64,000 bases of DNA from Squalus acanthias (taxonomy: Eukaryota): NCBI GenBank assembly GCA_030390025.1, contig CM059431.1:139006001-139070000 (forward strand), in the 5' to 3' direction. Below are positions 9,008 to 62,961 of the stretch, one piece after another. Position numbers and translations under genes: made by a program. The notes beneath the pieces are model-generated. The model had not been told where the DNA came from. It searched no databases and saw only the letters and a program-made list of their open reading frames with translations. The stretch's first letter is position 1, and every line of letters starts with the position of its first letter.

Positions 9008-9359
9008 TTTCCTCCCTTGTACAATGTCCGTGAGACTGTTCAGACTGCAATAAATTCCTGTTCCCACTCTGCCCCCTGCCTCCCCTCTCTTTCCTCTGCC
9101 TCTACCCCGCCGCACTGACCTAACCTCTGTTCCCACTCTGCCCCCTGCCTCCCCCTCTCTTTCCTCTGCCTCTACCCTCGCCACACTGACCCGCGCCTGT
9201 GCCCGCTGGACGTCCAACCCCTCGGCCTGTGAGTGTGACCAGTCTTTCCATTGTAAGTTTCCTAGACCGTGCACCCTGCTGTTGTGTGGAGATACATGAA
9301 AAGCATCAACCAGCTGCGTCAGTGGGAGGGATTCTCCTGGGTGAGCAGCACCTGTGGGA

Positions 9360-10035
9360 CAGGTAGAAAGGTAACATTAGCCATTGTCTTCGGTCCCCGC
9401 CACGAGCTGTGTTTCCGAGGCATCGACTCCATCCCTCTCCCTGCCCACTGTCTGAGGCTGAATCAGAGCATCCGTAATCTTGCTGTTGTATTTGACCGTA
9501 CGATGAGCTTCTGAACACATATCCATTCCATAGCCAACACCGTCTACTTCCAGCTCCATAACAGCGCCAGACTCTGCCCCTGCCTCAGCTCTAGACTTGA
9601 CTGTTCCAAGGCTCTCCTGGCCGGCCACCCTTTTCCACTCTCCATAAACTTTAACTCATCCAAAACTCTGCTCCGCGTGTTCTAACTCACAACAAGTCCC
9701 GTTCACCCATTATCCCTGTGCTCGCTGACCTATATTGGCTCCGGGTCTGGTGTTGCATTGATTTTATAATTCTCATCCTTGTTTTCAAACCCCTCCATGG
9801 CCTTGCCCCTCCCTGTGTCTGTAATTTCTTCCAGTCCTACATCCCTCTGAAATCCCTGTGCTGCTCCAATTCTGACCTGTGGCACATCTCCGATTTCCTT
9901 CTCTCCACCATTGGTGGCCGTGTCTTTAGCTGCGGAGGCCCTAAGCTCTGGAATTCCCTCTTTAAACATCTCTACCTCTCTCTGCTCCTTTAAGACGCTC
10001 CTTAAAACCTACTTCTTTGATCAAATGTTTGGTCA
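9360..10035 (+). mobile_element. L2-type LINE 3' fragment, degenerate
   Basis: RNLAVVFD, LADLYWLRV, KLWNSL and FKTLLKTY resemble the L2 ORF2 C-terminus. Confidence 0.7.
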
Positions 10036-10049
10036 CATAAAAGCTACTT

Positions 10050-10485
10050 ATGGCTGGGTCAGTGGGGTGCACGGCTGGGCCAGTGGGGGTCGCGTGCCTG
10101 CGCCAGTGGGGTGCGGGGCTGGGCCAGTGGGGGGTCGCGGGGCCGCGTCGGTGGGGGTCGCCGGGGAGCGTCGGTGGGGGTCGCCGGGGGCCGGGGGCCG
10201 GGCCTGGGTCAGTGGGTGTCGCCGGGAGCCGGGCCTGGGTCAGTGGGGGTCGCCGGGGGCCGGGCCTGGGTCAGTGGGGGTCGCCGGGGGCCGAGCCTGG
10301 GTCAGTGGGGTGCGGGGGGCTGGGCCAGTGGGGTGCGGGCCTGGGACAGTGGGGTGCGCGGCTGAGTCAGTGGGGGTCACGGGCCTGGGACAGTGGGGTG
10401 CGGGGGGCTGTGTCAGTGTTGGTGTCGGAGCTGGGACAGTGGGGTGCGGGGCTGGGCCAGTTTGGTGAATGGCAGTGCCAGTGGT
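10050..10485. repeat. G-rich degenerate minisatellite A (gggcctgggtcagtggggg-type)
   Basis: Visible imperfect array at the left edge of the duplication. Confidence 0.9.
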
Positions 10486-10847
10486 GTATGTAGCTGCGAC
10501 TGCGGGGTGAGAAATAGCTTCAAAGCCCTGCTCACTCACTCATCCCTGTGCTTGTGAACCTACATTGGCTCCCGGTTCCCCGAGCGTCTCCAATTTAAAA
10601 GTCCCATCGTTGTTTAAATCCCTTCCTGTCTCTAAGCTCCTCCAGCCCTACAATCCCCCACCACCAAGATCTCTCTCTTCCTCCGACTCTGGCCTCTTGT
10701 GGCATTTCACCCTCTCCTCCCCCCATCTATGGAGGCTGTGCCTTCGGCTGTCCCGGCTCAATGCTCATCAATTCCCCACCTAAACCTCTCCAGCTCCCTC
10801 CTCCTTTAGAACCCTCCGAAACTCACTGCTGTGACCAACATTCTGAC

Positions 10848-12900
10848 CATAGAAACATAGAAGATAGGAGCAGGAGTAGGCCATTTGGCCCCTCTAGCCT
10901 GCTCTGCCATTCAATGCGATCATGGCTGATCATCCAAACTCAGTACCCTGTACCTGCTTTCTCCCCATATCCCTTGATCCCTTGATCCCTTTAGCCTTAA
11001 GAAATATATCATAGAATCACAGAATCCCCACAGTGCTGATAGAGGCCATTTCGGCCCATCGAGCCCATATCCCACCCTATCCCCGTAACCCCACGTATTT
11101 ATTCCCCCCCCTAACACTAAGGGTCAATTTATCATAGCCAAATGAACCTAACCTGCACATCTTTGGACTGTGGGAGAAAACCGTAGCACCCAGAGGAAAC
11201 CCACGCAGACACGGGGAGAACGTGCAAACTCCACACAGTCACCCGAGGCCGGATTCGAACCCGAGTCCCTGGCTCTGTGAGGCAACAGTGCTAACCACTA
11301 TGCCACCGTGTTGCCCCTCCTTGAATATATTTAATGAATTGTCCTCTACTGCCTTCTGTGGTATAGAATTCCAAAGGTTCACCACTCTCTGGGTGAAGAA
11401 ATTCCTCCTCATTTCTGTCCTGAATGGCTTACCCCTTATCCTTAGACTGTGACCCCTGGTTCTGGACTCCCCCGCCATCGTGAACATCCTTCCTGCATCT
11501 AGTTTGTCCAGTCCTTTCAGAATTTTACAAGTTTCAATGAGATCACCTCTCATTCTTCTAAACTCCAGCGAGTATAAGCCCAATCGACCCAATCTCTCCT
11601 CATACGTCATTCCTGCCATCCCAGGTATCAGCCTGGTGAATCTTCGCTGCACTCCCTCCATGGCAAGAACCTCCTTCCTCAGATAAGGCGACCAAAACTG
11701 CACACAATACTCAAGATGTGGTCTCACCAAGGCCCTGTACAACTGCAGCAAGACATCCTTGTTCCTGTACTCAAACCCTCTCGCTACGAAGGCCAACATA
11801 CCACTTGCCTTCTTAACCGCCTGCTGCACCTGCATGCTTACCTTCAGTGACTGGTGCACAAGGACACCCAGGTCTCGTTGCACTTCCCCATTCTCCCAGT
11901 CTATTGCCATTCAGATAATAATCTGCCTTCCTGTTTTTGACACCAAAGTGGATAACCTTGCATTTATCCACGTTATATTGCATCTGCCATGCTTCTGCCC
12001 AATCACCCAACCTGTCCAAATCATCCTGGAGTTTCTTGGCATCCTCCTCACAGCACACACTCCCACCCAGCTTTGTGTCGTCTGCAAACTTGGAGATATT
12101 ACATCTAGTTCCCTTGTCTAGATCCTGAATATATATTGTGAATAGCTGGGGTACAAGGACCGATCCCTGCGGTACCCCACTAGTCACTGCCTGCCACTCG
12201 GAAAATGACCCGTTTATTCCAACTCTTTGCTTCCTGTCTGCCAACCAGTTCTCTATCCAAGTCAATACCTTGCCCCCAATCCCATGTGCCTTAACTTTAC
12301 ACGCTAATCTCTTATGCGGGACCTTATCGAAAGCCTTTTGAAAGTCCAAATACACCACATCCACTGGTTCTCCCTTATCTATTCTACCAGTTACATCCTC
12401 AAAAAATTTCAGTAGATTAGTCAAGCACGATTTACCTTTTGTAAATCCATGTTGACTTTGTCCGATCCTGTCACTGTTTTCCAAGTGCTCTGCTATTCCA
12501 TCTTTTATAATGGACTCTAGCATTTTCCCCACTACCGATGTCGGGCTTACCGGTCTGTAATTCCCCGTTTTCTCTCTGCCACCTTTTTTGAATAGTGGGG
12601 TAACATTAGCTACCCTCCAATCCATGGGAACTGTTCCAGAGTCTATAGAATGTTGGAAGATGATCAGCAATGCATCTACTATTTCTAGGGCCACTTCCTT
12701 AAGTACCCTAGGATGTAGATTATCAGGCCCTGGGGATTTATCGGCCTTCATTCCCGCCAATTTCCCTAACACCATTTCCCTACAAATACTGATTTCTTTC
12801 AGTTCCTCCCTCTCATTAGATCCTATGTTCCCTGACATCTCTGGGAGGTTATTTGTGTCCTCCTTTGTGAAGACAGAACCAAAATATGTATTTAATTGGT
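10848..12900 (-). mobile_element. 5'-truncated CR1 LINE with nested SINE (copy 1)
   Basis: ORFs 11813..12940 and 11239..11910 form a frameshifted RT; catagaaacatag tail at 10848. Confidence 0.95.
11009..11316 (-). mobile_element. tRNA-derived V-SINE (HE1-like), copy 1
   Basis: Minus-strand A box tggcatagtgg, B box ggttcgaatcc, V-domain-like tgtggagtttgcacgttctccccgtgtctgcgtgggtttcc and CR1-type tail gattctatga. Confidence 0.9.
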
Positions 12901-14102
12901 CTCCTTCTACCCCCTTTAGTCTGAGCCCATCTTTTGTCATACTTGGCTTCTGTGAAGCACCTTGCGATGTGTTTCGATGGACAAGTTGGTGTTGCTGTGT
13001 GTTTATTGTACCAGTGTCAGCGTGAGTGACACAGCAGATAACTGAATCTTACAAGATCTCAAACTGGGTTATAAGTTAATGCTGGAGAATAACTTCAACT
13101 ATAGTTTGTAGAAATTTCTGATCTGAGACTGAATCACTTTTACATTTCCCCAGTGGGGAAAGGAAAGGACGCTGACTGAGAGTTTGATTGGACGCACGTG
13201 TGTGGACACACACACAGCGAGACACGCGCACGAGTGGAGAATATTCACTGTAAAACAGCAGGCAAATCTACCACTTGTATATTCATGGCCATTCCTGAGA
13301 TTGATAAAACCTGTGAATATGTTCCACAAATCAATGCTGAGCATCACCTCACTGTTTAAATTTACATGATTCATAACATTATACATTAGTGTTAATATTA
13401 GTGGAATAGCGGTAAATATCCTCACCTCCTACAGTGCTCATTAGTCAGGTGCTGACACCAGGAGAGATATGGTCAATATATTCAAATAGAAGCACCAACC
13501 AGGGCATATCTCCATGTACACACGGACAATGTCACAGCCCATAGAGACCAGAGGAATCACACCTAGCTGTATATTGTATATGGATAGAAATCATATTCGG
13601 AAAGTACTGGATTTTAATATCAAAACTCAAATCAAAATTAATAAATACAAATATGCGAATAAAAAATACAATAGCGCCACATTGTGTAAAACCGAGTGTT
13701 GGATCATTGAATTCATCAATGATCACTCGCTCCATATTTTCCTGCAGAATATTCTCTACCTCCGGAATAAGGCTGGCTTTGGCCTGCACTGTGTGAGTAA
13801 ATCTCACCAATGTGCGAGTCTCGGCCGACGGGAGCCCGTCTGGAACTCGGTTGTGGGGATCAGCGGGACTCACTGGATTTCACTGGGCAGCTGTCTGTGT
13901 CACACCTGATGTGGAGAGTTGATCGTAACACTCGGGAAATGCTCGATCTCGGAGCTAACAGCTGGTGTACTGATGGGGGGGAGAAGGGGCTTGAAATCAT
14001 CTTTAACAAGGCAGCGCTCTCCTTATTTTAATATTTCTATCTAACCCTCCTATTAATATAGTTATTACAGAGCATCATAATCTGGGAACGCCTGTCACCG
14101 CC

Positions 14103-14166
14103 ATGGCTGAAGGTCCAATCAGGGGAGAAGATCCAACATCTTCAACAAGAATGAGAATGGACACAG
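14103..14166 (+). CDS. NLR coding exon 1, upstream copy (1a): [21 protein letters not shown]
   Basis: Acceptor ttacag| before 14071, strong Kozak accgccATGG, donor CAG|gtaaga, phase 1 matching exon 2. Confidence 0.75.
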
Positions 14167-14595
14167 GTAAGAACAACACAATATTATTTACAATATAATT
14201 TCTGTTCTGACAAAGGGTCCAGATCTCGTGCAAGAACCTCCAGCTCACACAGGTCGAGGGAACAGGACAGGGGCTGATTAGAAAGAGGGATGTGAGTGAC
14301 CATCTAGAGAGGCACCGCAGTCACAGGTGGAGGGAGCCCCTGAGGACTGGAACTGTCCAATAGATGGGGACTGTAAGGTGGATGGAGACAGTGACTCAGA
14401 AGATTGTCTTCCTGAGCAATAGTTTGAAGCCAGGGAGCAGTAGGTCACCCCGAGTGAGCCGAGGGTGAGAGGAGAATGATAGAGATATCTGATTCCAGAG
14501 GGAAGAACATCTTTGAATGGCTGTGACCTTTTCTGTGAAGGCAAGAAGAGCAGAAAATTGTCCCGGTCAAAACCAAAAACACAACTAGAAATACA

Positions 14596-16015
14596 TTTAA
14601 AAAATAATTTTCGGGACTTGAGTGTCGCTGGCAAGGCCCCCATTTATTGCCCACACCAAGTTGTCATTGAATAGATGATGGTGGGCCACGTTCTTGAATC
14701 GCTGCAGTCCATGTGGTGAAGGTGCTCCCTCAGTGCTGTTAGGTAGGGAGTTCCAAGGTTTTGATCCAGCGACAATGAAGGAGAGGTGATGTATGTCCAA
14801 GTTAGGGTTGTATGTGACATTAGGAGAACTTGGAAGCGAAGGTGTTCCCACGCACCTGGTGTCCTTGTCCTTCTAGGTGGTGGATGTCGTGGGTGTGAGA
14901 GGTGCTGTCGAAGATGCCTTGCTGACTTACTGGAGAGCATCCAGTAGACAGTAATCTGCAACCACGGTAAGCCAATGGTGGAGGGAGTCCATGTTTAACA
15001 CAATGGATGGGGTGCTGATCAAGCATAATGCTTTGTCCTGGATGGTGTTGAGCATCTTCAGTGTTGTTACAACTTCACTTGTCCAGACAAATGGAAAGTG
15101 TTCCATCACTCTCCTGACGTGTGTTGTAGGTGGGGGAGAGAATTTGGGGAGTCACGAGGTGAGCCACTTGCCACAGAATACCCAGCCTCTGACCTGCTCC
15201 CGTAGACACGGGGGATGTATGTGGCTGGTCCAGTTCTATTTTGTTTGATGTGGGGGACTTGTTGATAATGTCATTGACTGTCATGGCATATGGCTATGGT
15301 ATCTCTGGTTGGAGATGGTCATTGCCTGACCCTGGGAACGGTAGCGTAGTGGTAATGTCACTGGGCTAGTAATCCAGAGGCCTGGACTAATGATTCAGCA
15401 ACGTGAGTTCAAATCCCACCACGGCAGCTGGGGACTTAAATAAATCTGGAATAAAAAGCTAGAATCAGTAATGGTAACCATGAAACTATCGGATTGTCGT
15501 TAAAAACCCATCTGGTTCACTAATGTCCTTTTAGGGAAGGAAATCTGCCGTCCTTACGTGGTCTGGCCTGTATGTGACTACAGACCCACAGCAATGTGGT
15601 TGATCTTAACTGCCCTCTGAAATGGCCTAGCAAGCCACTCAGTTGTAACTAACCGCTACGAAACAAAATACCATCACCACACGGACTGCAGCGGTTCAAG
15701 AAGGCGGCTCACCACCACCTTCTCAAGGGCAACTTGGGATGGGCAATAAATGCTGGCCTTGCCAGCGATGCCCAGATCCCATAAAAGGAATAAAAAAAAC
15801 TTGTCTGGTTCGAATATAATTTGCCACATATCAGGCCAAAACTGGATGTTATCCACGTATTGCTGCAAGCAGGCATGGACTGCTTCATTATTGGGGGAAT
15901 TGTGAATGGGGCCGAACAAACTGCAACCATCAGCGAGCAGCCCCACCTCTAACCTTATGATGGAGCGAAGGTCACTGATGAAGCAGCTGGAAGTAGTTGA
16001 GTCTCGGATGCTGGC
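14596..16015 (-). mobile_element. Degenerate CR1-group LINE 3' portion interrupted by a SINE (copy 1; copy 2 at ~27234..28653)
   Basis: Fragments [36 protein letters not shown] and [12 protein letters not shown]. Confidence 0.75.
15332..15799 (+). mobile_element. tRNA-derived SINE with LINE-derived tail (copy 1; copy 2 at ~27970..28437)
   Basis: A box tagcgtagtgg, B box gagttcaaatccc, 3' end homologous to the host LINE terminus, A-rich end. Confidence 0.88.
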
Positions 16016-16885
16016 CTGGTTTGAGGCCTATATTGAGAGAATTTAAAGTCAGGCAATGGAATGTAAAACAAAGCATCAAGGTGATGGTCTCTGGCTGTAG
16101 GGTGGGGGCGGGGTGGTTAAAATGGAATTAGGTTCAAGGCCAGCTGATAATACAAAAAGTCAGGGTTTATGAAAAGTAAAGCAATAATTCAAGGTTCTAT
16201 CACTGGGGATGAAGGGAGAATCTAATTGTGGAGGATGATGTTTTGAGGAGGTATCAAACATTTCCAATAGTTTCTAAAAATGATGGTGGTGGTGCGAGAA
16301 GGTGGACTAGAGGAGGATGTGGGATCATAGTTGGAGTTAAATGTAGGGAAGGATTTGGAGCTGAAAAAATAGCCAAGATGGGTAAGTGACTGGGCCCAGA
16401 GATAACACACTCCAGGCTGTTAAATCAAATCACAGAGGAGGGAGGACAGACTCTCCACAATTGTTCAATCTGTTTTAGATTTAAACAATACACTGGAGCA
16501 CTGAAGGAGCCCAAGTAACGTCTCTGTTCAACAATGGAGGAGAGAGGATAAACCGGGTAACTAGAACAGTCTACGGCAGTTATGGGCAGAATGCTCGAGT
16601 CCGGAATTTAAGGTTGAATTAGTGAATGTTGAGATACAGGGGATGATCAGGGGAGGCTGGAACCGACTAACTGTAGGCAAGATGTGTTTGACAAATTTGC
16701 ACGCTTTTTTTAAAGAATGGACTATATAGATCGATGGGATGCAGCATCTGCGGTGTATATGTGGTTTAAGAAGGTGTTTGATAATGCGGCTCACAGGAGG
16801 TTTCAGCTGTTTGGTATAAGAGGCAATGTAGCAGCTTGGATATAAAGTGGATAATGAGTTTAATTTTCTCCATTTGTGTTCACAG

Positions 16886-17052
16886 ATCCGAACTCTACAA
16901 TCACTGAGTTCTTGACAGAGTGCAACGATTACCAGCTGTTCCAGTTGACGAAATTCTACCGGGACAGACTGGAACAGGCGATTGAAGGAGGGGTGGATGG
17001 AGTCAGCTCGTTGTTAACATATGAGTGGCATTTCAGTGGACAAGAACATCGG
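16886..17052 (+). CDS. NLR coding exon 2, upstream copy (2a): (D)[55 protein letters not shown]
   Basis: Acceptor ttttctccatttgtgttcacag, donor CGG|gtgagt, 167 nt, phase 1 to 0, open frame. Confidence 0.8.
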
Positions 17053-17644
17053 GTGAGTGGGAGGGACACAGAATGAGTTTGGGTTATTTAAACATCACAG
17101 AAGCAACAGGAAATCAGATCTTAGAATCATAGAATGTTACAGAAGAAAAACAGGCCAACTAGGAAAGAAAGGGTTAAAGCTGTTAATATTTTAAAACAGA
17201 AACAACAACACCAATGTGAAAATACCCACTGGATCCATCAGTCTATGTAAAAAGGACAGGGTAATGGGTACGAAATTATCCTTTGTGGGCTGAAGTCAAA
17301 GGAAACCAAGAATTTTAGCAGGTTCTCTCAAAGAGACAAGAGACAACTAGCCGGAGTTTTAGGGAAGGTCATGAGTTGAATGTCCTACAAAGTATATAAA
17401 GTAAATTGAGGAACTGTGAGATGATTTTAAAAAATCAGCTGCGGGTTAAAGGAAAGATATTTTTATAAAATGTTAAACTAGTGAACAAGTATTGGACCCA
17501 AACAACCTCAAAAAACCTATGGGGAGTGTCGGATCAACCGAATAGAATGATCCCAATTATATTGATTCAGATACCAGCGATAAATCAACTTATTGGTTCT
17601 ATGAAAATCCTCAGGATGTTCAAGCAAATTATCCAGCTACAGTT

Positions 17645-20027
17645 AGTAGAATCACAGGAACTTACAGCACAGAAGGAGGCCACGTCGTGCCTGTGCTGGC
17701 TCTTTGAAAGAGCAGCCGAGCTCAGTCCCACACGCCCACTATTTGTCCGTAACCCTGCAAGTTCCTCATCCACAAGTACCTGTCTAACTCCCTTTAAAAC
17801 TATTGATGGCATCAGCTTACATCACCTTTTCAGGTCGAGCGTTCCAGATCCTGACATCACTCTGAGTGAAAACAATTCTCCTCATCCCCCCTCTAGATCT
17901 TTTGGCAATTAATTTAAATCTATGGCCTCTGGTTATTGACCCGCTCGCCAGACGGAATAGTTTTTTCTCTCTGTCAAAACTTTTTATCATCTTGAAACCC
18001 TCTATTAGGTCACCTGTTAACCTTCTCTGTTCCAAAGAGAACAGTCCTGACTTTCCCGATCTAGTAATAGTACATCCTTTTGTATTCTGTCTCTATTTAT
18101 AAAACTAGGAATCCCGTCTGTTTTTTAACAGCTTTCTCAACTGATTCTGCCAACTTCAAATAATTCTCTACATAAATCCCGAGGTCTCTGTTCCTTCACC
18201 CCCTTTAAAATTGTACAGTTTAGTTTGTATTGTCTCTCCTCATTCTTTCTTCCAAACATAGTCATAGAGAAATACATCACAGAAAGAGGCCCTTCTGCCC
18301 ATCGTGTCCGCGCCGGCCATCAAGCCCTGTCTATTCTAATCCCATTTTCCAGCACTTGGTCCGTAGCCTTGTATGCTATGACGTTTCAAGTGCTCATCTA
18401 AATGCTTCTTGAATGTTGAGGGTTCCTGCCTCTACCACCCTTTCAGGCAGTGACTTCCAGATTCCAAACACCCTCTGGGTGAAAAAGTTTTTCCTCAAAT
18501 CCCCTCTAAACCTCCTGCCCCTTACCTTGAAACTATGCCCCCTGGTTATTGAGCCCTCTACTAAGGGGGAAAAGTTCCTTTCTATCTACCCTATCTATGC
18601 CCCACGTAATTTTGTGCACCTAAATCAGGTCCCTCCTCAGCCTTCTCTGCTCTAAGGAAAACAACCCCAGCCTGACCAGTCTCTCTTCATAGCTGAAACG
18701 CTCCAGCCCAGTAACATCCTGGTGAATCTCCTCTGCACCCTCTCTAATGCAATCACATCCTTCCTATAGCGTGGCGACCAGAACTGCACACAGTATTACA
18801 GCTGTGGCCTATCTAGCGTTTTGTACAGCTCCATCATAACCTCCCTGCTCTTATATTCTATGCCTCGGCTAATGAAGGCATATGCCTTCTTAACCACCTT
18901 ATCTACCTGTCCTGCTGCCTTCAGGGATCTATGTACATGCACACCAAGGCCCCTTTTGATCCTCTGTCCTTCCTAGGGTCCTACCATTCATTGTGTATTC
19001 CCTTGCCTTGTTAGTCCTCCCAAAATGCATCACCTCACACTTTTCAGGGTTAAATTCCATTTGCCACTGTTCTGCTCATCTGACCAACCGTCTATATCGT
19101 CCTGTAGCCTGAGGCTTCCCTCCTCGCTATTTACCACTCTACCAATTTTCATGTCATCTGCGAACTTACTGATCATAGCTCCTACATTCATATCTAAATC
19201 ATTAATGTACACACAAACAGCAAGGGACCCAGCACCGATCCCTGCGTTACACCACTGGACACAGGCTTCCAGTCACAATAACAACATTCGACCATCCCCC
19301 CTCTGCCTCCTGCCACTAAACCAATTTTGGATCCAATGTGCCAAGTTGCCCTGGATCCCATGGGCTCTTACCTTCTTGACCAGTCTGCCATGCGGGACCT
19401 TGTCAAAAACCTTTCTGAAGTCCATGTGGACTACATCAACTGCACTACCCTCATCCACATACCTAGTCACCCTCTCTCAAAAGTCAATCAATTTGGTTAG
19501 ACATGATCTCCCCCTGACAAAGCCATGCTGACTATCCTTGATTAATCCTTGCCTGCCAAGAGAAGACTAATTCTGTCCCTCAGAAATTTTTCCAATAATT
19601 TCCCTACCACTGATGTTAGGCTCACTGGCCTGTAATTCCCTGGTTTATCCCTACTATGCTTCTTGAATAATGGTACTACATTAACTGTCCTCCAGTTCTC
19701 TGGCACCTCCCCTGTGGGCAGAGAGGATCTGAAAATTTGTGTCAGAACCCCTGCAATCTCCTCCCTTGCCTCACACAGCAGCCTGGGATACATCTCGTCT
19801 GGTCCTGGGGATTGATCCACTTTTAAGCCCGCTAAAACCGCTAATACCTCCTCCCCCTCGATGCTAATTTGTTCAAGTATATCACCATCCCCCTGCCTGA
19901 TTTCTATGCTTACATCGTCCTTCTCCATAGTGAACACAGATGCAAAATATTCATTTAAAACCTCACCTACATCTTCTGGCTCTACACACAGATTGCCACT
20001 TTTGTCCCTAATGGGCCCTACTCTTTC
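17645..20027 (-). mobile_element. Two adjacent CR1 LINE fragments (17645..18255 and 18256..20027)
   Basis: RT fragments ([21 protein letters not shown]); the second is the same subfamily as 7140..9007, inverted. Confidence 0.9.
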
Positions 20028-20270
20028 GATAGCAAAATACTGCGGATGCTGGAAATCCGAAATAACAACAGAAAACGCTGGAAAAACTCAGCAGGCCAGG
20101 CAGCATCCGTGGAGAGAGAAACAGAGTTAACGTTTCAGGTCGAAGACCTTTCGTCAGAACTGGAAAAAAGCAGGAAATAAAATCGATTTAACGCTGGGAG
20201 AAGGGGGAGGGGATGAAAGAACAAAAGGAGAGATTAAGAGACACAGAGACGTTAAGAGATAATCATGGCC
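20028..20270 (-). mobile_element. Penelope-like element terminal fragment (also at ~32663..32905)
   Basis: Nearly identical to the start of the GIY-YIG-bearing insertion at 33691. Confidence 0.8.
20125..20161 (-). ncRNA. Minimal type-I hammerhead ribozyme-like motif (also 32760..32796 and 33788..33824)
   Basis: AGUU-CUGACGA-A-AGGUC(UUC)GACCU-GAAAC-GUU-AACU on the - strand. Confidence 0.55.
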
Positions 20271-20274
20271 AGGA

Positions 20275-23035
20275 CAGTGGGGGGCGCGGGGTTGGGTCGG
20301 GGGGGGGCGCGGGGTTGGGTCGGTGGGGGGGCGCAAGGCTGGGTCGGTGGGGGGGCGCGGGGTTGGGTCGGTGGGGGGGCGCGGAGTTGGGTCGGCGCGG
20401 GGTTGGGTCGGTGGGGGGCGCGGGGTTGGGTCGGTGGGGGGCGCGGGGTTGGGTCGGTGGGGGGTGGGCGCGGGGGTTGGGTCGGTGGGGGGTTGGGTCG
20501 CTGGGGGGCGCGGGGGTTGGGTCGCTGGGGGGCGCGGGGTTGGGTCGGTGGGGGGTTGGGTCGGTGGGGGGTGCGGGGTTGGCTCGTTGGGGCGCGGGGT
20601 TGGGTCGTTGGTGGGGCAAGGGGGTGGGGGGTTGGGTCGTTGGGGGGTTGGGTCGGTGGGGGGCGCGGGGTTGGGTCGGTGGGGGGCGCGGGGTTGGGTC
20701 GTTGGGTTGGGTCGGTGGGGGGCGCGGGGTTTGGTCGGTGGGGGGCGCGGGGTTGCGACGGTGGGGGGCGCGGGGTTGGGTCGGTGGGGGGCGCGGGGTT
20801 GGGTCGGTGGGGGGGCGCGGGGTTGGGTCGGTGGGGGGCGCGGGGTTGGGTCGGTGGGGGGCGCGGGGTTGGGTCGGTGGGGGGCGCGGGGTTGGGTCGT
20901 TGGGGGGTTGGGTCGGTGGGGGGCGCGGGGTTGGGTCGGTGGGGGGCGCGGGGTTGGGTCGGTGGGGGGCGCGGGGTTGGGTCGGTGGGGGGCGCGGGGT
21001 TGGGTCGGTGGGTGGCGCGGGGTTGGGTCGGTGGGGGGCGCGGGGTTGGGTCGGTGGGTGGCGCGGGGTTGGGTCGGTGGGGGGGCGCGGGGTTGGGTCG
21101 GTGGGGGGCGCGGGGTTGGGTCGGTTGGGGGTTGGGTCGGTGGGGCGTTGGGTCGGTGGGGGGCGCGGGGTTGGGTCGGTGGGGGGCGCGGGGTTGGGTC
21201 GGTGGGGGGCGCGGGGTTGGGTCGGTGGGGGGCGCGGGGTTGGGTCGGTGGGGGGCGCGGGGTTGGGTCGGCGGGGGGGTGGGCGCGGGGTTGGGTCGGC
21301 GGGGGGGTGGGCGCGGGGTTGGGTCGGCGGGGGGTTGGGTCGGTGGGGGGTTGGGTCGCTGGGGGGCGCCTGAGTCGGGTCGCTGGGGGGCGCGGGGTTG
21401 GGTCGGTGGGGGATTGTGTCGGTGGGGGGCGCGGGGTTGGGTCGGTGGGGGGGCGCGGGGTTGGGTCATTGGGGGGCGCGGGGTTGGGTCGGTGGGGGGT
21501 TGGGTCGGTGGGGGGCGCGGGGTTGGGTCGTGGGGGGGCGCGGGGTTGGGTCGGTGGGGGGGCGCGGGGTTGCCTCTGTGGGGGGCGCGGGGTTGGGTCA
21601 GTGGTTGGTTGGGTCGGTGGGGGGCGCGGGGTTGGGTCATTGAGGGGCGTGGGGTTGGGTCGGTGGGGGGCGCGGGGTTGGGGGGTTGGGTCGTTGGGGG
21701 TTTCGGTCGGTGGGGGGCGCGGGGTTGGGGGGTTGGGTTGGTGGGGGGCGCGGGGTCGGTGGGGGGTTGGGTCGGTGGGGGGCGCGGGGTTGGGTCGGTG
21801 GGGGGCGCGGGGTTGGGTCGGTGGGGGGCGCGGGGTTGGGTCGGTGGGGGGCGCGGGGTTGGGTCGGTGGGGGGCGCGGGGTTGGGTCGGTGGGAGCGGG
21901 GTTGGGTCGGTGGGGGGCGCGGGGTTGGGTCGGTGGGGGGCGCGGGGTTGGGTCGGGGGGGGGCGCGGGGTTGGGTCGGGGGGGGGCGCGGGGTTGGGTC
22001 GGTGGAGGGCGCGGGGTTGGGTCGGTGGGGGGCGCGGGGTTGGGGCGGGGTTGGGTCGGTGGGGGGCGCGGGGTTTGGTCTGTGGGGGGGGGGGCGCGGG
22101 GTTGGGTCGTTGGGGGGGCGCGGGGTTGGGTCGGTGGGGGGCGCGGGGTTGGGTCGGTGGGGGGCGCGGGGTTGGGGCGGGGTTGGGTCGGTGGGGGGCG
22201 CGGGGTTTGGTCTGTGGGGGGGGGCGCGGGGTTGGGTCGTTGGGGGGGCGCGGGGTTGGGTCGGTGGGGGGCGCGGGGTTGGGTCGGTGGGGGGCGCGGG
22301 GTTGGGTCGGTGGGGGGCGCGGGGGTTGGGTCGGTGGGGGGCGAGGGGTTGGGTCGGTGGGGGGCGAGGGGTTGGGTCGGTGGGGGGCGCGGGGTTGGGT
22401 CGGTGGGGGGCGCGGGGTTGGGTCGGTGGGGGGCGAGGGGTTGGGTCGGTGGGGGGCGAGGGGTTTGGGTCGGTGGGGGGGCGAGGGGTTGGGTCGGTGG
22501 GGGGCGGGGGTTTGGGTCGGTGGGGGGCGCGGGGTTAGGTCGGTGGGGGACGCAGGTTTGGTTTGTTGGGGGGGCGCGGGGTTGGGTCGGTGGGGGGGCC
22601 TGAGTCATGGGGGGCGCGGGGTTGGGTCATTGGGGGCCCGGGGCTGGGTCGTTGGGGGGCGCGGGGCTGGGTCGTTGGGGGGCGCGGGGCTGGGTCGTTG
22701 GGGGGCGTGGGGCTGGGTCGGTGGGGGTGGCAGGTCTGTGTCGGTGGGTTGCGGGGGGCTGGGTCAGTGGGGTGCGGGGCTGCATCAGTGTGGTGCGGGG
22801 GGCTGGGACAGTGGGTGTGCGGGGCTGCTTCAGTGGGGTGCGGGGGGCTGGGTCTGTGGGGTGCAGGCCTGCATCAGTGGGGTGCGGGGGGCTGTGACGG
22901 TGGGTTGTGGGGCTGGGCCAGTTTGGTGCGGGCCTGGGACTGTGGGGTGCGGGGTGCTGGGTCAATGTGGGTGTCGGAGCTGGGACCGTGGGTTTTGGGG
23001 CTGAGCCAGTTTGGTGCGTGGCTGGGTCAGTGTGG
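20275..23035. repeat. G-rich minisatellite B: ~2.3 kb of the 23-bp unit GGGGTTGGGTCGGTGGGGGGCGC grading into A-type repeats
   Basis: Visible array with extreme G/C strand skew. Confidence 0.97.
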
Positions 23036-23397
23036 GTGTAGCTGCGACAGCGGGGTGCGAAATCGCTTCAAAGCCCTGCTCACTCAGCATCCGTGTGCTT
23101 GTGAACCTACATTGGCTCCCGGTTCCCCGAGCGTCTCCAATTTACAAGTCCCATTGTTGTTTAAATCCCTTCCTGTCTCTGTAACCTCCTCCAGCACTAC
23201 AATCCCCCACCACCAAGATCTCTCTCTTCCTCCAACTCTGGCCTCTTGTGGCATTTCCCCCTCAACTCCCCCCCATCTATGGAGGCTGTGCCTTCGGCTG
23301 TCCCGGCTCAATGCTCATCAATTCCCCACCCAAACCTCTCCAGCTCCCTCCTCCTTTAGAACCCTATGAAACTCACTGCTGTGACCAACATTCTGAC

Positions 23398-25538: not shown

Positions 25539-26740
25539 CTCCTTCTACCCCCTTTAGTCTGAGCCCATCTTTTGTCATACTTGGCTTCTGTGAAGCACCT
25601 TGCGATGTGTTTCGATGGACAAGTTGGTGTTGCTGTGTGTTTATTGTACCAGTGTCAGCGTGAGTGACACAGCAGATAACTGAATCTTACAAGATCTCAA
25701 ACTGGGTTATAAGTTAATGCTGGAGAATAACTTCAACTATAGTTTGTAGAAATTTCTGATCTGAGACTGAATCACTTTTACATTTCCCCAGTGGGGAAAG
25801 GAAAGGACGCTGACTGAGAGTTTGATTGGACGCACGTGTGTGGACACACACACAGCGAGACACGCGCACGAGTGGAGAATATTCACTGTAAAACAGCAGG
25901 CAAATCTACCACTTGTATATTCATGGCCATTCCTGAGATTGATAAAACCTGTGAATATGTTCCACAAATCAATGCTGAGCATCACCTCACTGTTTAAATT
26001 TACATGATTCATAACATTATACATTAGTGTTAATATTAGTGGAATAGCGGTAAATATCCTCACCTCCTACAGTGCTCATTAGTCAGGTGCTGACACCAGG
26101 AGAGATATGGTCAATATATTCAAATAGAAGCACCAACCAGGGCATATCTCCATGTACACACGGACAATGTCACAGCCCATAGAGACCAGAGGAATCACAC
26201 CTAGCTGTATATTGTATATGGATAGAAATCATATTCGGAAAGTACTGGATTTTAATATCAAAACTCAAATCAAAATTAATAAATACAAATATGCGAATAA
26301 AAAATACAATAGCGCCACATTGTGTAAAACCGAGTGTTGGATCATTGAATTCATCAATGATCACTCGCTCCATATTTTCCTGCAGAATATTCTCTACCTC
26401 AGGAATAAGGCTGGCTTTGGCCTGCACTGTGTGAGTAAATCTCACCAATGTGCGAGTCTCGGCCGACGGGAGCCCGTCTGGAACTCGGTTGTGGGGATCA
26501 GCGGGACTCACTGGATTTCACTGGGCAGCTGTCTGTGTCACACCTGATGTGGAGTGTTGATCGTAACACTCGGGAAATGCTCGATCTCCGAGCTAACAGC
26601 TGGTGTACTGATGGGGGGGAGAAGGGGCTTGAAATCATCTTTAACAAGGCAGCGCTCTCCTTATTTTAATATTTCTATCTAACCCTCCTATTAATATAGT
26701 TATTACAGAGCATCATAATCTGGGAACGCCTGTCACCGCC

Positions 26741-26804
26741 ATGGCTGAAGGTCCAATCGGGGGAGAAGATCCAACATCTTCAACAAGAATGAGAATGAAC
26801 ACAG
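26741..26804 (+). CDS. NLR coding exon 1, downstream copy (1b): [21 protein letters not shown]
   Basis: Duplicate of 14103..14166 at offset 12638; acceptor before 26709, Kozak and donor intact. Confidence 0.8.
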
Positions 26805-29800
26805 GTAAGAACAACACAATATTATTTACAATATAATTTCTGTTCTGACAAAGGGTCCAGATCTCGTGCAAGAACCTCCAGCTCACACAGGTCGAGGGAA
26901 CAGGACAGGGGCTGATTAGAAAGAGGGAAGTGAGTGACCATCTAGAGAGGCATCACAGTCACAGGTGGCGGGAGCCCCTGAGTACTGGAACTGTCCAATA
27001 GATGGGGACTGTAAGGTGGATGGAGACAGTGACTCAGAAGATTGTCTTCCTGAGCAATAGTTTGAAGCCAGGGAGCAGTAGGTCACCCCGAGTGAGCCGA
27101 GGGTGAGAGGAGAATGATAGAGATATCTGATTCCAGAGGGAAGAACATCTTTGAACGGCTGTGACCTTTTCTGTGAAGGCAAGAAGAGCAGAAAATTGTC
27201 CCGGTCAAAACCAAAAACACAACTAGAAATACATTTAAAAAATAATTTTCGGGACTTGAGTGTCGCTGGCAAGGCCCCCATTTATTGCCCACACCAAGTT
27301 GTCATTGAATAGATGATGGTGGGCCACGTTCTTGAATCGCTGCAGTCCATGTGGTGAAGGTGCTCCCTCAGTGCTGTTAGGTAGGGAGTTCCAAGGTTTT
27401 GATCCAGCGACAATGAAGGAGAGGTGATGTATGTCCAAGTTAGGGTTGTATGTGACATTAGGAGAACTTGGAAGCGAAGGTGTTCCCACGCACCTGGTGT
27501 CCTTGTCCTTCTAGGTGGTGGATGTCGTGGGTGTGAGAGGTGCTGTCGAAGATGCCTTGCTGACTTACTGGAGAGCATCCAGTAGACAGTAATCTGCAAC
27601 CACGGTAAGCCAATGGTGGAGGGAGTCAATGTTTAACACAATGGATGGGGTGCTGATCAAGCATAATGCTTTGTCCTGGATGGTGTTGAGCATCTTCAGT
27701 GTTGTTACAACTTCACTTGTCCAGACAAATGGAAAGTGTTCCATCACTCTCCTGACGTGTGTTGTAGGTGGGGGAGAGAATTTGGGGAGTCACGAGGTGA
27801 GCCACTTGCCACAGAATACCCAGCCTCTGACCTGCTCCCGTAGACACGGGGGATGTATGTGGCTGGTCCAGTTCTATTTTGTTTGATGTGGGGGACTTGT
27901 TGATAATGTCATTGACTGTCATGGCATATGGCTATGGTATCTCTGGTTGGAGATGGTCATTGCCTGACCCTGGGAACGGTAGCGTAGTGGTAATGTCACT
28001 GGGCTAGTAATCCAGAGGCCTGGACTAATGATTCAGCAACGTGAGTTCAAATCCCACCACGGCAGCTGGGGACTTAAATAAATCTGGAATAAAAAGCTAG
28101 AATCAGTAATGGTAACCATGAAACTATCGGATTGTCGTTAAAAACCCATCTGGTTCACTAATGTCCTTTTAGGGAAGGAAATCTGCCGTCCTTACCTGGT
28201 CTGGCCTGTATGTGACTACAGACCCACAGCAATGTGGTTGATCTTAACTGCCCTCTGAAATGGCCTAGCAAGCCACTCAGTTGTAACTAACCGCTACGAA
28301 ACAAAATACCATCACCACACGGACTGCAGCGGTTCAAGAAGGCGGCTCACCACCACCTTCTCAAGGGCAACTAGGGATGGGCAATAAATGCTGGCCTTGC
28401 CAGCGATGCCCAGATCCCATAAAAGGAATAAAAAAAACTTGTCTGGTTCGAATATAATTTGCCACATATCAGGCCAAAACTGGATGTTATCCACGTATTG
28501 CTGCAAGCAGGCATGGACTGCTTCATTATTGGGGGAATTGTGAATGGGGCCGAACAAACTGCAACCATCAGCGAGCAGCCCCACCTCTAACCTTATGATG
28601 GAGCGAAGGTCACTGATGAAGCAGCTGGAAGTAGTTGAGTCTCGGATGCTGGCCTGGTTTGAGGCCTATATTGAGAGAATTTAAAGTCAGGCAATGGAAT
28701 GTAAAACAAAGCATCAAGGTGATGGTCTCTGGCTGTAGGGTGGGGGTGGGGTGGTTAAAATGGAATTAGGTTCAAGGCCAGCTGATAATACAAAAAGTCA
28801 GGGTTTATGAAAAGTAAAGCAATAATTCAAGGTTCTATCACTGGGGATGAAGGGAGAATCTAATTGTGGAGGATGATGTTTTGAGGAGGTATCAAACATT
28901 TCCAATAGTTTCTAAAAATGATGGTGGTGGTGCGAGAAGGTGGACTAGAGGAGGATGTGGGATCATAGTTGGAGTTAAATGTAGGGAAGGATTTGGAGCT
29001 GAAAAAATAGCCAAGATGGGTAAGTGACTGGGCCCAGAGATAACACACTCCAGGCTGTTAAATCAAATCACAGAGGAGGGAGGACAGACTCTCCACAATT
29101 GTTCAATCTGTTTTAGATTTAAACAATACACTGGAGCACTGAAGGAGCCCAAGTAACGTCTCTGTTCAACAATGGAGGAGAGAGGATAAACCGGGTAACT
29201 AGAACAGTCTACGGCAGTTATGGGCAGAATGCTCGAGTCCGGAATTTAAGGTTGAATTAGTGAATGTTGAGATACAGGGGATGATCAGGGGAGGCTGGAA
29301 CCGACTAACTGTAGGCAAGATGTGTTTGACAAATTTGCACGCTTTTTTTAAAGAATGGACTATATAGATCGATGGGATGCAGCATCTGCGGTGTATATGT
29401 GGTTTAAGAAGGTGTTTGATAATGCGGCTCACAGGAGGTTTCAGCTGTTTGGTATAAGAGGCAATGTAGCAGCTTGGATATAAAGTGGATAATGAGTTTA
29501 ATTTTCTCCATTTGTGTTCACAGATCCGAACTCTACAATCACTGAGTTCTTGACAGAGTGCAACGATTACCAGCTGTTCCAGTTGACGAAATTCTACCGG
29601 GACAGACTGGAACAGGCGATTGAAGGAGGGGTGGACGGAGTCAGCTCGTTGTTAACATACGAGTGGCATTTCAGTGGACAAGAACATCGGGTGAGTGGGA
29701 GGGACACAGAATGAGTTTGGGTTATTTAAACATCACAGAAGCAACAGGAAATCAGATCTTAGAATCATAGAATGTTACAGAAGAAAAACAGGCCAACTAG

Positions 29801-32800
29801 GAAAGAAAGGGTTAAAGCTGTTAATATTTTAAAACAGAAACAACAACACCAATGTGAAAATACCCACTGGATCCATCAGTCTATGTAAAAAGGACAGGGT
29901 AATGGGTACGAAATTATCCTTTGTGGGCTGAAGTCAAAGGAAACCAAGAATTTTAGCAGGTTCTCTCAAAGAGACAAGAGACAACTAGCCGGAGTTTTAG
30001 GGAAGGTCATGAGTTGAATGTCCTACAAAGTATATAAAGTAAATTGAGGAACTGTGAGATGATTTTAAAAAATCAGCTGCGGGTTAAAGGAAAGATATTT
30101 TTATAAAATGTTAAACTAGTGAACAAGTATTGGACCCAAACAACCTCAAAAAACCTATGGGGAGTGTCGGATCAACCGAATAGAATGATCCCAATTATAT
30201 TGATTCAGATACCAGCGATAAATCAACTTATTGGTTCTATGAAAATCCTCAGGATGTTCAAGCAAATTATCCAGTTACAGTTAGTAGAATCACAGGAACT
30301 TACAGCACAGAAGGAGGCCACGTCGTGCCTGTGCTGGCTCTTTGAAAGAGCAGCCGAGCTCAGTCCCACACCCCCACTATTTGTCCGTAACCCTGCAAGT
30401 TCCTCATCCACAAGTACCTGTCTAACTCCCTTTAAAACTATTGATGGCATCAGCTTACATCACCTTTTCAGGTCGAGCGTTCCAGATCCTGACATCACTC
30501 TGAGTGAAAACAATTCTCCTCATCCCCCCTCTAGATCTTTTGGCAATTAATTTAAATCTATGGCCTCTGGTTATTGACCCGCTCGCCAGACGGAATAGTT
30601 TTTTCTCTCTGTCAAAACTTATCATCTTGAAACCCTCTATTAGGTCACCTGTTAACCTTCTCTGTTCCAAAGAGAACAGTCCTGACTTTCCCGATCTAGT
30701 AATAGTACATCCTTTTGTATTCTGTCTCTATTTATAAAACTAGGAATCCCGTCTGTTTTTTAACAGCTTTCTCAACTGATTCTGCCAACTTCAAATAATT
30801 CTCTACATAAATCCCGAGGTCTCTGTTCCTTCACCCTGTGTAAAATTGTACAGTTTAGTTTGTATTGTCTCTCCTCATTCTTTCTTCCAAACATAGTCAT
30901 AGAGAAATACATCACAGAAAGAGGCCCTTCGGCCCATCGTGTCCGCGCCGGCCATCAAGCCCTGTCTATTCTAATCCCATTTTCCAGCACTTGGTCCGTA
31001 GCCTTGTATGCTATGACGTTTCAAGTGCTCATCTAAATGCTTCTTGAATGTTGAGGGTTCCAGCCTCTACCACCCTTTCAGGCAGTGACTTCCAGATTCC
31101 AAACACCCTCTGGGTGAAAAAGTTTTTCCTCAAATCCCCTCTAAACCTCCTGCCCCTTACCTTGAAACTATGCCCCCTGGTTATTGAGCCCTCTACTAAG
31201 GGGGAAAAGTTCCTTTCTATCTACCCTATCTATGCCCCATGTAATTTTGTGCACCTAAATCAGGTCCCTCCTCAGCCTTCTCTGCTCTAAGGAAAACAAC
31301 CCCAGCCTGTCCAGTCTCTCTTCATAGCTGAAACGCTCCAGCCCAGTAACATCCTGGTGAATCTCCTCTGCACCCTCTCTAATGCAATCACATCCTTCCT
31401 ATAGCGTGGCGACCAGAACTGCACACAGTATTACAGCTGTGGCCTATCTAGCGTTTTGTACAGCTCCATCATAACCTCCCTGCTCTTATATTCTATGCCT
31501 CGGCTAATGAAGGCATATGCCTTCTTAACCACCTTATCTACCTGTCCTGCTGCCTTCAGGGATCTATGTACATGCACACCAAGGCCCCTTTTGATCCTCT
31601 GTCCTTCCTAGGGTCCTACCATTCATTGTGTATTCCCTTGCCTTGTTAGTCCTCCCAAAATGCATCACCTCACACTTTTCAGGGTTAAATTCCATTTGCC
31701 ACTGTTCTGCTCATCTGACCAACCGTCTATATCGTCCTGTAGCCTGAGGCTTCCCTCCTCGCTATTTACCACTCTACCAATTTTCATGTCATCTGCGAAC
31801 TTACTGATCATAGCTCCTACATTCATATCTAAATCATTAATGTACACACAAACAGCAAGGGACCCAGCACCGATCCCTGCGTTACACCACTGGACACAGG
31901 CTTCCAGTCACAATAACAACATTCGACCATCCCCCCTCTGCCTCCTGCCACTAAACCAATTTTGGATCCAATGTGCCAAGTTGCCCTGGATCCCATGGGC
32001 TCTTACCTTCTTGACCAGTCTGCCATGCGGGACCTTGTCAAAAACCTTTCTGAAGTCCATGTGGACTACATCAACTGCACTACCCTCATCCACATACCTA
32101 GTCACCCTCTCTCAAAAGTCAATCAATTTGGTTAGACATGATCTCCCCCTGACAAAGCCATGCTGACTATCCTTGATTAATCCTTGCCTGCCAAGAGAAG
32201 ACTAATTCTGTCCCTCAGAATTTTTTCCAATAATTTCCCTACCACTGATGTTAGGCTCACTGGCCTGTAATTCCCTGGTTTATCCCTACTATGCTTCTTG
32301 AATAATGGTACTACATTAACTGTCCTCCAGTTCTCTGGCACCTCCCCTGTGGGCAGAGAGGATCTGAAAATTTGTGTCGGAACCCCTGCAATCTCCTCCC
32401 TTGCCTCACACAGCAGCCTGAGATACATCTCGTCTGGTCCTGGGGATTGATCCACTTTTAAGCCCGCTAAAACCGCTAATACCTCCTCCCCCTCGATGCT
32501 AATTTGTTCAAGTATATCACCATCCCCCTGCCTGATTTCTATGCTTACATCGTCCTTCTCCATAGTGAACACAGATGCAAAATATTCATTTAAAACCTCA
32601 CCTACATCTTCTGGCTCTACACACAGATTGCCACTTTTGTCCCTAATGGGCCCTACTCTTTCGATAGCAAAATACTGCGGATGCTGGAAATCCGAAATAA
32701 CAACAGAAAACGCTGGAAAAACTCAGCAGGCCAGGCAGCATCCGTGGAGAGAGAAACAGAGTTAACGTTTCAGGTCGAAGACCTTTCGTCAGAACAGGAA

Positions 32801-35800
32801 AAAAGCAGGAAATGAAATCGATTTAAAGCTGGGAGAAGGGGGAGGGGATGAAAGCACAAAAGGAGAGATTAAGAGACACTGAGAGATGTTAAGAGATAAT
32901 CATGGCCAGGTCAGTGGGGGGCGCTGGGTTGGGTCGGTGGGGGGGGGGCGCGGGGTTGGGTCGTTGGGGGGGGCGCGGGGTTGGGTCGGTGGGGGGCGCG
33001 GGGCTGGGTCGGTGGGGGGCGCGGGGCTGGGGCGGTGGGGGGCGCGGGGCTGGGGCGGTGGGGGGCGCGGGGCTGGGGCGGTGGGGGGCGCGGGGCTGGG
33101 GCGGTGGGGGGCGCGGGGCTGGGGCGGTGGGGGGCGCGGGGCTGGGTCGGTGGGGGCGGCAGGCCTGGGTCGGTGGGGTGCGCCGCGGGGGTGCGCCAGT
33201 GGGGTGCGGGGGGCTGTGTCAGTGGGGTGCGGGGCTGCGTCAGTGGGGTGCGGGGGGCTGGGACCTACTACCCTCTGAGTGAAGAAGTTTCTCCTCATCT
33301 CAGTTTTGAAAGAGCAGCCCCTTATTCTAAGATTATGCCCCCTAGTTCTAGTTTCACCCATCCTTGGGAACATCCTTACCGCATCCACCCGATCAAGCCC
33401 CTTCACAATCTTATGTTTCAATAAGATCGCCTCTCACTCTTCTGAACTCCAATGAGTAGAGTCCCAATCTGCTCAACCTCTCCTCATATGTCCACCCCCT
33501 CATCCCGGGGATTAACCTAGTGAACCTTCTTTGTACTGCCTCGAGAGCAAGTATGTCTTTTCTTAAGTATGGACACCAAAACTGTATGCAGTATTCCAGA
33601 TGCGGTTTCACCAATACCTTATATAACTGCAGCATCTTCCGGCTCTACACACAGATTGCCACTTTTGTCCCTAATGGGCCCTACTCTTTCGATAGCAAAA
33701 TACTGCGGATGCTGGAAATCCGAAATAACAACAGAAAACGCTGGAAAAACTCAGCAGGCCAGGCAGCATCCGTGGAGAGAGAAACAGAGTTAACGTTTCA
33801 GGTCGAAGACCTTTCGTCAGAACTGGAAAAAAGCAGGAAATGAAATCGATTTAAAGCTGGGAAAAGGGGGAGGGGATGAAATAACAAAAGGAGAGATTAA
33901 GAGACATTGAGAGACGTTAAGAGATATTCAAGGCCAGAGGAGGTTTTGATGTAACAGGTTGAGGCTAAATGAAGTGTGAAATGCACTGGCAGAATGAAGG
34001 ACAGCTGCCAGCTTCTGGGAGGGAAAAAAAAGGGGGGGGGGGCAAACAAAAGGGTGGATGAAAAAATAAAATATAAATGTGATAGGGGCCGAGGAGATGA
34101 TCTAAAATTGTTGAACTCGATGTTGAGTCCAGAGGGCTGTAGAGTGCCTAAACGAAAGATAAGTTGCTGTTCCTCGAGCTTACGCTGCGCTTCCGTGGAA
34201 CAGTGTAATAGGCCGAGGACGGTGAGGTCAGAGAGGGAGTGGAGCGGAGAATTAAAGTGACAGGCAACCGGGAGCTCGGGGGTCCCCCTTACGGACTGAA
34301 CGGAGGTGTTCAGCAAAGCGGTCACCCAATCTGCGTTTGGTCTCCCCAATGTGGAGGAGACCACATCGTGAGCAGCGAATACTGTATACCAAATTGCAGG
34401 AAGTACAAGTAAATCGCTGTTTCACCTGGAAGGGGCGTTTGGGGCCCTACTCTTTCCCTGGTTATTCTCTTGCCCTTAATATACTTATAAAACACCTTGG
34501 GATTTTCCTTTATTTTGCCCGCCAGTGTTTTTTCATGCCCTCTCTTTGCTCTCCTAATTTCTTTAAGTACCCCCCTGCACTTTCTGTACTCTTCTTGGGC
34601 TTCCACTGTTTTTAGTCCTTCGTATCTGCCAAATGCCTCCCTTTTTTTTCCTAATCCATTCTCGTATATCCCTTGACATCCAGGGTTCCCTGGGCTTGTT
34701 GGTCCAACCCTTGACCTTTACGGGAACATGTTGGCGCTGTACTCTCTCTCTTTCCTTTCTGAATGACTCCCACTGTATCGTGGATTTTCCTACAAGTAGC
34801 TGACCCCAGATCCTGCCTTATCATATTAAAATCGGCCTTCCCCCAATTTAGAATCTTTATTTCCGGTCCATCTTTGTCCTTTTCCATTACTACCTTAAAT
34901 CTCACCGAATTATGGTCACTGTCACTAAAATGCTCTCCTACTGACACTTCTACCACTTGCCCGGCTACATTCCCTAGAATTAGGTCCAGTACCGCCCCCT
35001 CTCTTATAGAACTTTCTACATGCTGGCTCAAAAAACACTCCTGGATACACTTTAAGAATTCCGCCCCCTCTAAGCCTTTCACACTCTGACTATCGCAGTT
35101 AATATTGGGGAAGTTGAAATCCCCTACTACTATTATTATATCAATTCACACTTCTCTGTCATGTGTCTGCCCATTTCACCAGTCTGTCTATGCCCTCCTG
35201 AAGTCTGCTATTATCCTTCTCACTATTTACTACCTTTCTGAGTTTCGCGCAATCTGCAATTCTTTTAAATTATGCTCTGTATCCCCAAGTGCAGGTCATT
35301 AATATATATCAAAGAGCAGTCGTCCTAATACTGTACTGAGCCCTGTGGGACAACACTGTACTCTTTCCTCCAGTCTGAAAAACAGCAGTTTACAACTGCT
35401 CTCTGTTTTCTTTCCCTTTGACAATGTTATATCAACGCTGCCACTGCCCATTTAATCCCATGGGTTTCGAATTTGCTAACATGTCTATTACTTGGTCAAA
35501 CGCCTTTTGAAAGTCCATATACACATCATCAACCGCACGACCCTTGTCAACCGTTAATTCATTAAACAACTCAATCAATTTATTCAACCACGCTATGCCT
35601 TTAATAAATCCATGTTGGCTGCAATTTATTAACCCATGTCTTTTCCAAGGGAATATTTTGTCCTGGATTATTGTGTCTAAAAGTTTCTCCACTATCGAGG
35701 TTAGGCTGACTGGCCTGTTGTTGCTGGGTTCATCCCTCTCCCCTTTTTTGAACAGCGGTGTAACATTTGCAACTCTCCACTCCGCTGGCACCACTCAAGT

Positions 35801-60987: not shown

Positions 60988-61035
<48 letters not shown>

Positions 61036-62928: not shown

Positions 62929-62961
<33 letters not shown>

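Follow-up and report, generated by a model that had tools for sequence, protein, structure and literature searches.

Two direct copies of the first coding exons of a shark NLR gene between three G-rich minisatellite arrays

The locus and its gene

The window analysed here, a 64-kb stretch of Squalus acanthias DNA (assembly GCA_030390025.1, contig CM059431.1, positions 139,006,001 to 139,070,000), contains a shark NLRP-related NLR gene coding for NACHT, winged-helix, HD2 and LRR regions behind N-terminal exons of a shark type. A 10-kb segment with the first coding exons of this gene occurs in two direct copies between three G-rich arrays, and the self-comparison of the window puts the duplication far above chance (blastn E=0). 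The order proposed in the initial annotation, namely array A, unit 1, array B, unit 2 and array C, was recovered both by Tandem Repeats Finder and by the self-comparison:

10052-10491, + strand: array A, about 19 units (21-31 bp each), its left part built on a private 31-mer and its right part on A-type 21/23-mers
10491-20272, + strand: unit 1, 9782 bp, chiefly retroelement pieces with two coding exons
20273-23040, + strand: array B, 2.77 kb, C-type 23-mers to about 22717, then a switch of repeat type common to C
Right part of array B: C pattern running on to about 22896, and A-like final five units at 22939-23040
23040-32910, + strand: unit 2, 9871 bp, in which the ATCCCTTG tract is expanded
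32910-33264, + strand: array C, C-type 23-mers, then a marker unit, then A-type units

The two units are 99.5% identical: across 9.78 kb, 52 substitutions and 6 internal indels separate them (two more gap records in the alignment are alignment ends and are left out of the 6). One of these indels is an 88-bp gain in the ATCCCTTG 8-mer tract (23519-23629), which lies near the end of the diverged edge described below and has about 14 perfect copies in unit 2 versus about 3 in unit 1.

The exons assigned to the gene are as follows:

14071-14166, + strand: first copy of the leader exon (96 bp, phase 1-1), with its ATG at 14103, placed by splice contexts and by matches to shark NLR N-termini
16886-17052, + strand: exon a copy 1 (167 bp, phase 1-0), which codes for the first half of the N-terminal domain
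26709-26804, + strand: leader exon copy 2, with two amino-acid changes, R7G and D20N
29524-29690, + strand: exon a copy 2, protein identical to copy 1, both nucleotide differences silent
36511-36682, + strand: exon b (phase 0-1), unduplicated, which codes for the second half of this domain
49866-51632, + strand: open frame of the NACHT, winged-helix and HD2 exon (Pfam E 8e-37, 3e-13 and 2e-17)

The duplicated unit thus takes in the leader exon together with half of the N-terminal domain; to the right of the units, exon b, the NACHT exon and the LRR exons are found in single copy. No LRR exon was found within the unit, the notable LRR-like matches in the window being confined to 56300-56684. 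Among 149 candidates, exon a has 134 relatives at E<=0.001, the best of them 91% identical; the best 120 of the 134 all come from sharks and rays, nearly all with NLR names or domains, and in 117 of the 118 relatives having both exons, exon b directly follows exon a. The N-terminal exons gave no Pfam match, and the CARD label attached to them comes from the source names. An expansion of NLRP-related NLRs in sharks has already been described (PMC8455134), and by exon and domain content the present gene resembles the family reported there in having the same leader, two-exon N-terminal domain, NACHT-WH-HD2 region and LRR exons; unlike in that description, the leader exon and exon a are here doubled at the DNA level. 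As a separate feature of the gene, the LRR exons are tandemly repeated together with their introns (56300-56916; 311-bp repeat, about 90% identity), with no array between the copies.

Internal structure of the arrays

The three arrays are evidently homologous, predicted to be G4-prone, and situated at the unit boundaries: non-overlapping canonical G4 motifs number 8 in A, 75 in B and 7 in C, all G-rich on the sense strand of the gene, and the G4Hunter-type mean of array A is 1.3. Splitting the arrays into units confirms that B starts with C-type 23-mers, and its measured length of 2.77 kb agrees with the expansion to ~2.7 kb first suggested for it. Of the C-type 23-mer core, B has 60 copies, C has 9 and A has none, and two A-end markers are present in A and B and absent from C; B is in this respect the hybrid it was said to be. 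The switch between the types, however, is also present in C, the last five units of which are A-type, so that C is not the pure C-type array of the original description. A marker absent from A, GGCAGG, is found at one place in B (22729) and one in C (33158); the C-specific motif GGGGCTGC[AGT]TCAGTG lies at 22776 and 22821 in B and at 33231 in C, again with none in A. B aligns with C up to the final base of C (10 substitutions in 115 aligned bases and one 26-bp gap), and the copy of the motif at 22821 lies past the point that matches this last base. Since C has the switch and B continues past the end of C, the change of repeat type in B is best read as inherited together with C and not as the mark of a crossover.

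Similarity between the other array segments is limited. The last five units of B and of A differ at 15 of 99 aligned bases (85% match); in B, C markers extend to and beyond the end of C and A markers start at about 22918, with 130 bp between them that match neither cleanly. The longest exact matches are 28 bp for A-C, 23 bp for A-B and 37 bp for B-C, compared with 1750 bp between the units. A-right and C-right have 15 18-mers in common, and the last 23-mer of C is identical to A 10302-10324; there are no 14-mers common to A and either the middle of B or the left part of C. The variant units of B recur in clusters, as expected from mutation followed by amplification.

Flanking sequences and new junctions

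The sequences next to the arrays separate a native-looking array site from derived ones:

9694-10051, + strand: retroelement 3' tail, its end running into array A, 71% match to a copy at 48664-49004
19970-20272, + strand: X1, left flank of B, a piece of retroelement adjoining another repeat element, the latter truncated where it meets the array
32605-32909, + strand: X2, left flank of C
33633-33937, + strand: X', third copy of this flank, array-free, 97% to X1 and X2
33261-33633, - strand: Y, reverse-transcriptase element piece, 91.5% to 38009-38279

The tail in front of A is presumably of L2/SINE type, and the one other copy found, at 48664-49004, continues with TTATTGGGCTCGGTG, which resembles the left edge of A, TTATGGCTGGGT. 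Because its left edge thus resembles the natural tail of the element before it, A is the likely native seed site. B and C have the same left flank, as was first noticed, ending in gataatcatggccagg in each case. X', which was missing from the earlier description of the locus, lies 370 bp to the right of C and runs into an intact repeat element that is collinear with two other element copies; it therefore marks an empty site, and the X-array junction at B and C is derived. A accordingly stands at a native-looking site, the left junction of B and C is derived, and C shares the internal order of B. The repeat element that holds X gave 0 Pfam matches in two frames; we take it to be Penelope-like, a label on which nothing here relies. 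Y, which we assume to be of CR1 type, is foreign to the units, its nearest unit element being 72% identical. These family names are provisional; a domain test was made for RT alone, on two other element frames in the window.

Short matches are found at all three new junctions (X-array, C-Y and Y-X', the last one assumed). The 20 bases before the first unit of A and the 20 before the break in X' are alike at 13 of 20 positions in register (empirical p 0.0003, ranging from 0.019 to 0.0003 over six window sizes, chosen post hoc). The right end of C is cut at a 4-bp GGAC match with Y, where the paralog reads TGGAC, and a 3-bp CAT match is assumed at Y-X'. Both ends of C are new junctions. Short matches at new junctions are what microhomology-mediated template switching (FoSTeS/MMBIR) would leave, and the foreign piece Y would fit one such event as well as several.

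Divergence along the units

The right flank of A is repeated at B, as had been claimed (tagctgcgac...cttcaaagccctgctcactca is common to the two), but it is not near-identical there:

10491-10817, + strand: left edge of the unit, diverged from 23040-23367 by 17 substitutions and 3 indels

Along the whole alignment there are 17 substitutions in the first 327 bp, 5 in the last 112 bp and 30 in the 9340 bp between, giving edge divergences of 5.2% and 4.5% versus 0.32% in the interior (Fisher p against the interior 7e-14 and 5e-5, respectively). Directly behind the 327-bp patch follow 1750 bp that are identical but for the 8-mer tract, the longest such run. Because the interior is itself patchy (one cluster has 5 substitutions within 112 bp, another 7 within 327 bp), only the first 327-bp patch is exceptional, and the cluster at the left edge of the array is by itself not so. 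The changes at the right edge fit a step only slightly better than a decay (log-likelihood -58.2 vs -60.1).

Each of the two copies has changes at its edge. Polarised by two distant outgroup copies, the 21 columns that differ between the A and B flanks resolve into 8 A-derived, 6 B-derived and 7 unpolarised ones. The alignment of X1, X2 and X' has 1 event in its first 190 columns and 11 in its last 115 (p 2e-4), with 3 events assigned to X1 and 3 to X2. The first 110 bp of the A/B flank are about as diverged as the last 112 bp of the B/C flank, and for the relative age of the array splits, 15/99 (A/B) against 17/209 (B/C) gives p 0.07. A search of the literature for a shark mutation rate usable for dating the edges in years found none. 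Interlocus gene conversion between duplicates has been reported to leave raised edges around a uniform middle (PMC2588116); diverged edges are common to such tandem duplicates and to the present units, with the difference that the edges here coincide with minisatellites.

A low transition/transversion ratio was considered as a sign of error and rejected, the 22/30 of the units being in the range of five other paralog pairs in the window (44/48, 12/8, 78/106, 15/13 and 72/48). Just left of A, 7228-9010 is an inverted 1.8-kb copy (93.5%) of the retroelement stretch at 18254-20027 and 30889-32662 in the units; used as an outgroup, it assigns 3 changes to unit 1 and 4 to unit 2. In the 755 bp around the leader exon (13763-14518), 11 unit differences cluster, two of which alter amino acids. 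Within exons the units differ at four positions, 14121/26759, 14160/26798, 16998/29636 and 17022/29660.

Origin of the duplication

In the reading that we favor, the 5' coding end of the gene has truly undergone a partial tandem duplication, which would have been built in stages around one G4-prone array. The order of events and the pathways that we infer for it are as follows. A replication fork would have stalled at or near the array and switched template between the end of X and the left edge of A, creating the X-array junction; this junction would then have been copied again, either via unequal exchange within the kilobase-long units or by re-replication, and the last unit lost down to C-Y-X' through two short-match joins. 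B would on this account be the old junction array, grown to 2.77 kb during array turnover, and C its truncated sister, while later unequal crossover or gene conversion would hold the interiors at 0.32% as the edges drifted to ~5% and the arrays turned over. We give this staged origin, with a template switch at the left edge of A, amplification of the junction array, truncation of C and later homogenisation of the interior, an even chance of being correct. Because X1, X2 and X' branch at about equal depth and the A/B versus B/C comparison (p 0.07) does not show the A/B split to be the older one, the order of events is not fixed, and a one-off mutagenic copy is disfavored because changes fall on both copies, in the A/B flank as well as in X1 and X2. 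A similar assemblage has been reported at human 16q24.1 (PMC4411736): a duplication lies there next to an unstable minisatellite of large size, its junctions show truncated minisatellite pieces and template switches at short matches, and the event was ascribed to replication error. The present locus is like it in having a duplication beside a minisatellite, a truncated array piece and short-match junctions, and unlike that de novo, 1.7-Mb case in having a 10-kb unit, three surviving arrays and diverged edges.

Against the staged origin stands its need for three or four events, versus just two for an exchange between arrays A and C, which is the simplest rival and was the initial interpretation of the locus. 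Homologous direct arrays do stand at the unit boundaries, as ectopic recombination between A and C would have it, but the flanks, the shared switch, the 28-bp match and the 15/99 comparison do not support a crossover footprint. The left flank of C and right flank of A on either side of B do not amount to such a footprint because any tandem duplication that includes an array gives the same arrangement, and the 'hybrid' array alone is therefore no proof of a crossover between arrays. In the version that we weighed, C came first, as a partial templated copy of A, and an exchange of A with the end of C made B and the second unit; as amended, one complex event yields X-C, C-Y and Y-X', and B is later expanded and turned over. 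The identity of the last 23-mer of C with A 10302-10324 and the 28-bp exact match offer a substrate, human alpha-globin exchanges are reported to be able to use matches of <50 bp over short distances (PMC2583991), and a single date would fit the similar divergence of the A/B flank over its first 110 bp and of the B/C flank over its last 112 bp. The crossover would nevertheless have to fall in the last tens of bases of C, yet B keeps the C pattern beyond them; 28 bp is far under the 300-500 bp usual for meiotic NAHR (PMC2583991); and later homogenisation or hypermutation would still be required for the 15% and 5% edges. Of the features that mark NAHR between direct repeats as described in the same source, bracketing homologous direct repeats and a junction copy between the units are present here; long uninterrupted identity is replaced by 28 identical bp between the outer arrays, C is itself derived, and there is no marker-mapped crossover interval. 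We therefore regard the A-C exchange as possible but rather unlikely.

Two further readings were weighed. If the duplication were false, two A-unit-C haplotypes would have been joined via the array, with B as a long C allele fused to the other A. The 0.32% interior is close to the heterozygosity of vertebrate assemblies (0.22-0.95%), in which unsupported gap-free joins do occur (PMC9516828), and G4 motifs cause recurrent sequencing errors (bioRxiv 2022.02.08.479604). Against this, false duplicates are mostly gap-separated in that survey of assemblies (PMC9516828), whereas the window has no N and hence no gap anywhere in its 64 kb; A shares 0 14-mers with the middle of B or the left of C and 28 exact bases with C, too short for a read overlap; the alleles would need a 5% difference on both sides of the arrays; and the 52 substitutions versus 6 indels, with transitions/transversions of 22/30, are like those of other paralog pairs. 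Such a mis-join is in our estimate improbable. A young duplication of the age given by the 0.32% interior, with arrays that raise germline substitution ~15-fold for 100-330 bp on each side, would account for the divergence on both array sides in all three comparisons and finds a parallel in the break-induced replication at non-B repeats that mutates flanks over kilobases in cell lines (PMC11161834). Error-filtered human variants, though for short motifs, are reported without flank mutagenesis (bioRxiv 2022.02.08.479604), a single burst should mark one copy where both are marked, and the longest identical run begins directly after the diverged patch; hypermutable flanks are to us likewise improbable.

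Predicted effect on the gene

At canonical splice sites the duplicated exon a is out of phase with its neighbors: splicing of leader 1 to exon a copy 1 and on to exon a copy 2 would meet a stop after 86 residues, and leader 1-exon a copy 1-leader 2 after 104, while an open frame results when leader 1 is joined to exon b through one or the other copy of exon a. The likely outcome would be two alternative 5' ends for one gene. The view that tandem inclusion is always out of frame had to be softened, in that the leader is of phase 1-1 and skipping the first exon a keeps the frame; an isoform with two leader exons is on these phases possibly produced, and use of the weak GAG acceptor (14071/26709) would also restore the frame. 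Among the best 120 matches to exon a, of 98-2000 residues, exon a is repeated in 0 and the leader in 2. The functional stake is small unless RNA shows use of both 5' ends.

Wider setting and other repeats

Repeat-associated duplication of this sort is already known, and the locus is one more case, though a well-preserved one, of an unstable G-rich repeat, short-match joins and homogenisation reshaping an immune gene. Tandem repeats and G4 motifs are reported to be enriched at human CNV breakpoints (PMC4090240), and G-rich tandem repeats lie at copy-number boundaries both there and here, the human result being a statistical association and the present one a single locus. No minisatellite-bounded duplication in shark NLR genes was found in a literature search that was thin on subscription journals. 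Whether long non-B repeats mutate their germline flanks is disputed, and the three copies of one flank offer a usable test of it.

The proposal that such arrays are a general driver of exon copy number in these NLR genes found no support within the window, where the duplicated half-domain exon is out of phase with the exons next to it at canonical splice sites and the sole other relative of the 23-mer is a short reverse copy:

56065-56154, - strand: 23-mer relative, 90 bp, upstream of the LRR exons

A broader conjecture has long G4-forming minisatellites drive repeated germline change in the NLR cluster of sharks: they would seed re-replication of exons nearby and raise substitution ~15-fold over 100-330 bp of each flank. 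It seems to us improbable; were it true, the arrays would generate alternative 5' ends and leader repeats like those in 2 of the 120 relatives.

Several other repeats of the window may be recorded. The intron that precedes the LRR exons has a GC-rich stretch (55780-56160) containing both the 23-mer relative at 56065-56154 and a palindromic TGACGTCA motif. Two more G-rich minisatellites, with unrelated 22-bp units, are situated upstream of and within the gene region (4859-5783 and 40521-41101). Downstream of the gene, 58616-64000 contains older tandem duplications of 83-85% identity that are not bracketed by the 23-mer.
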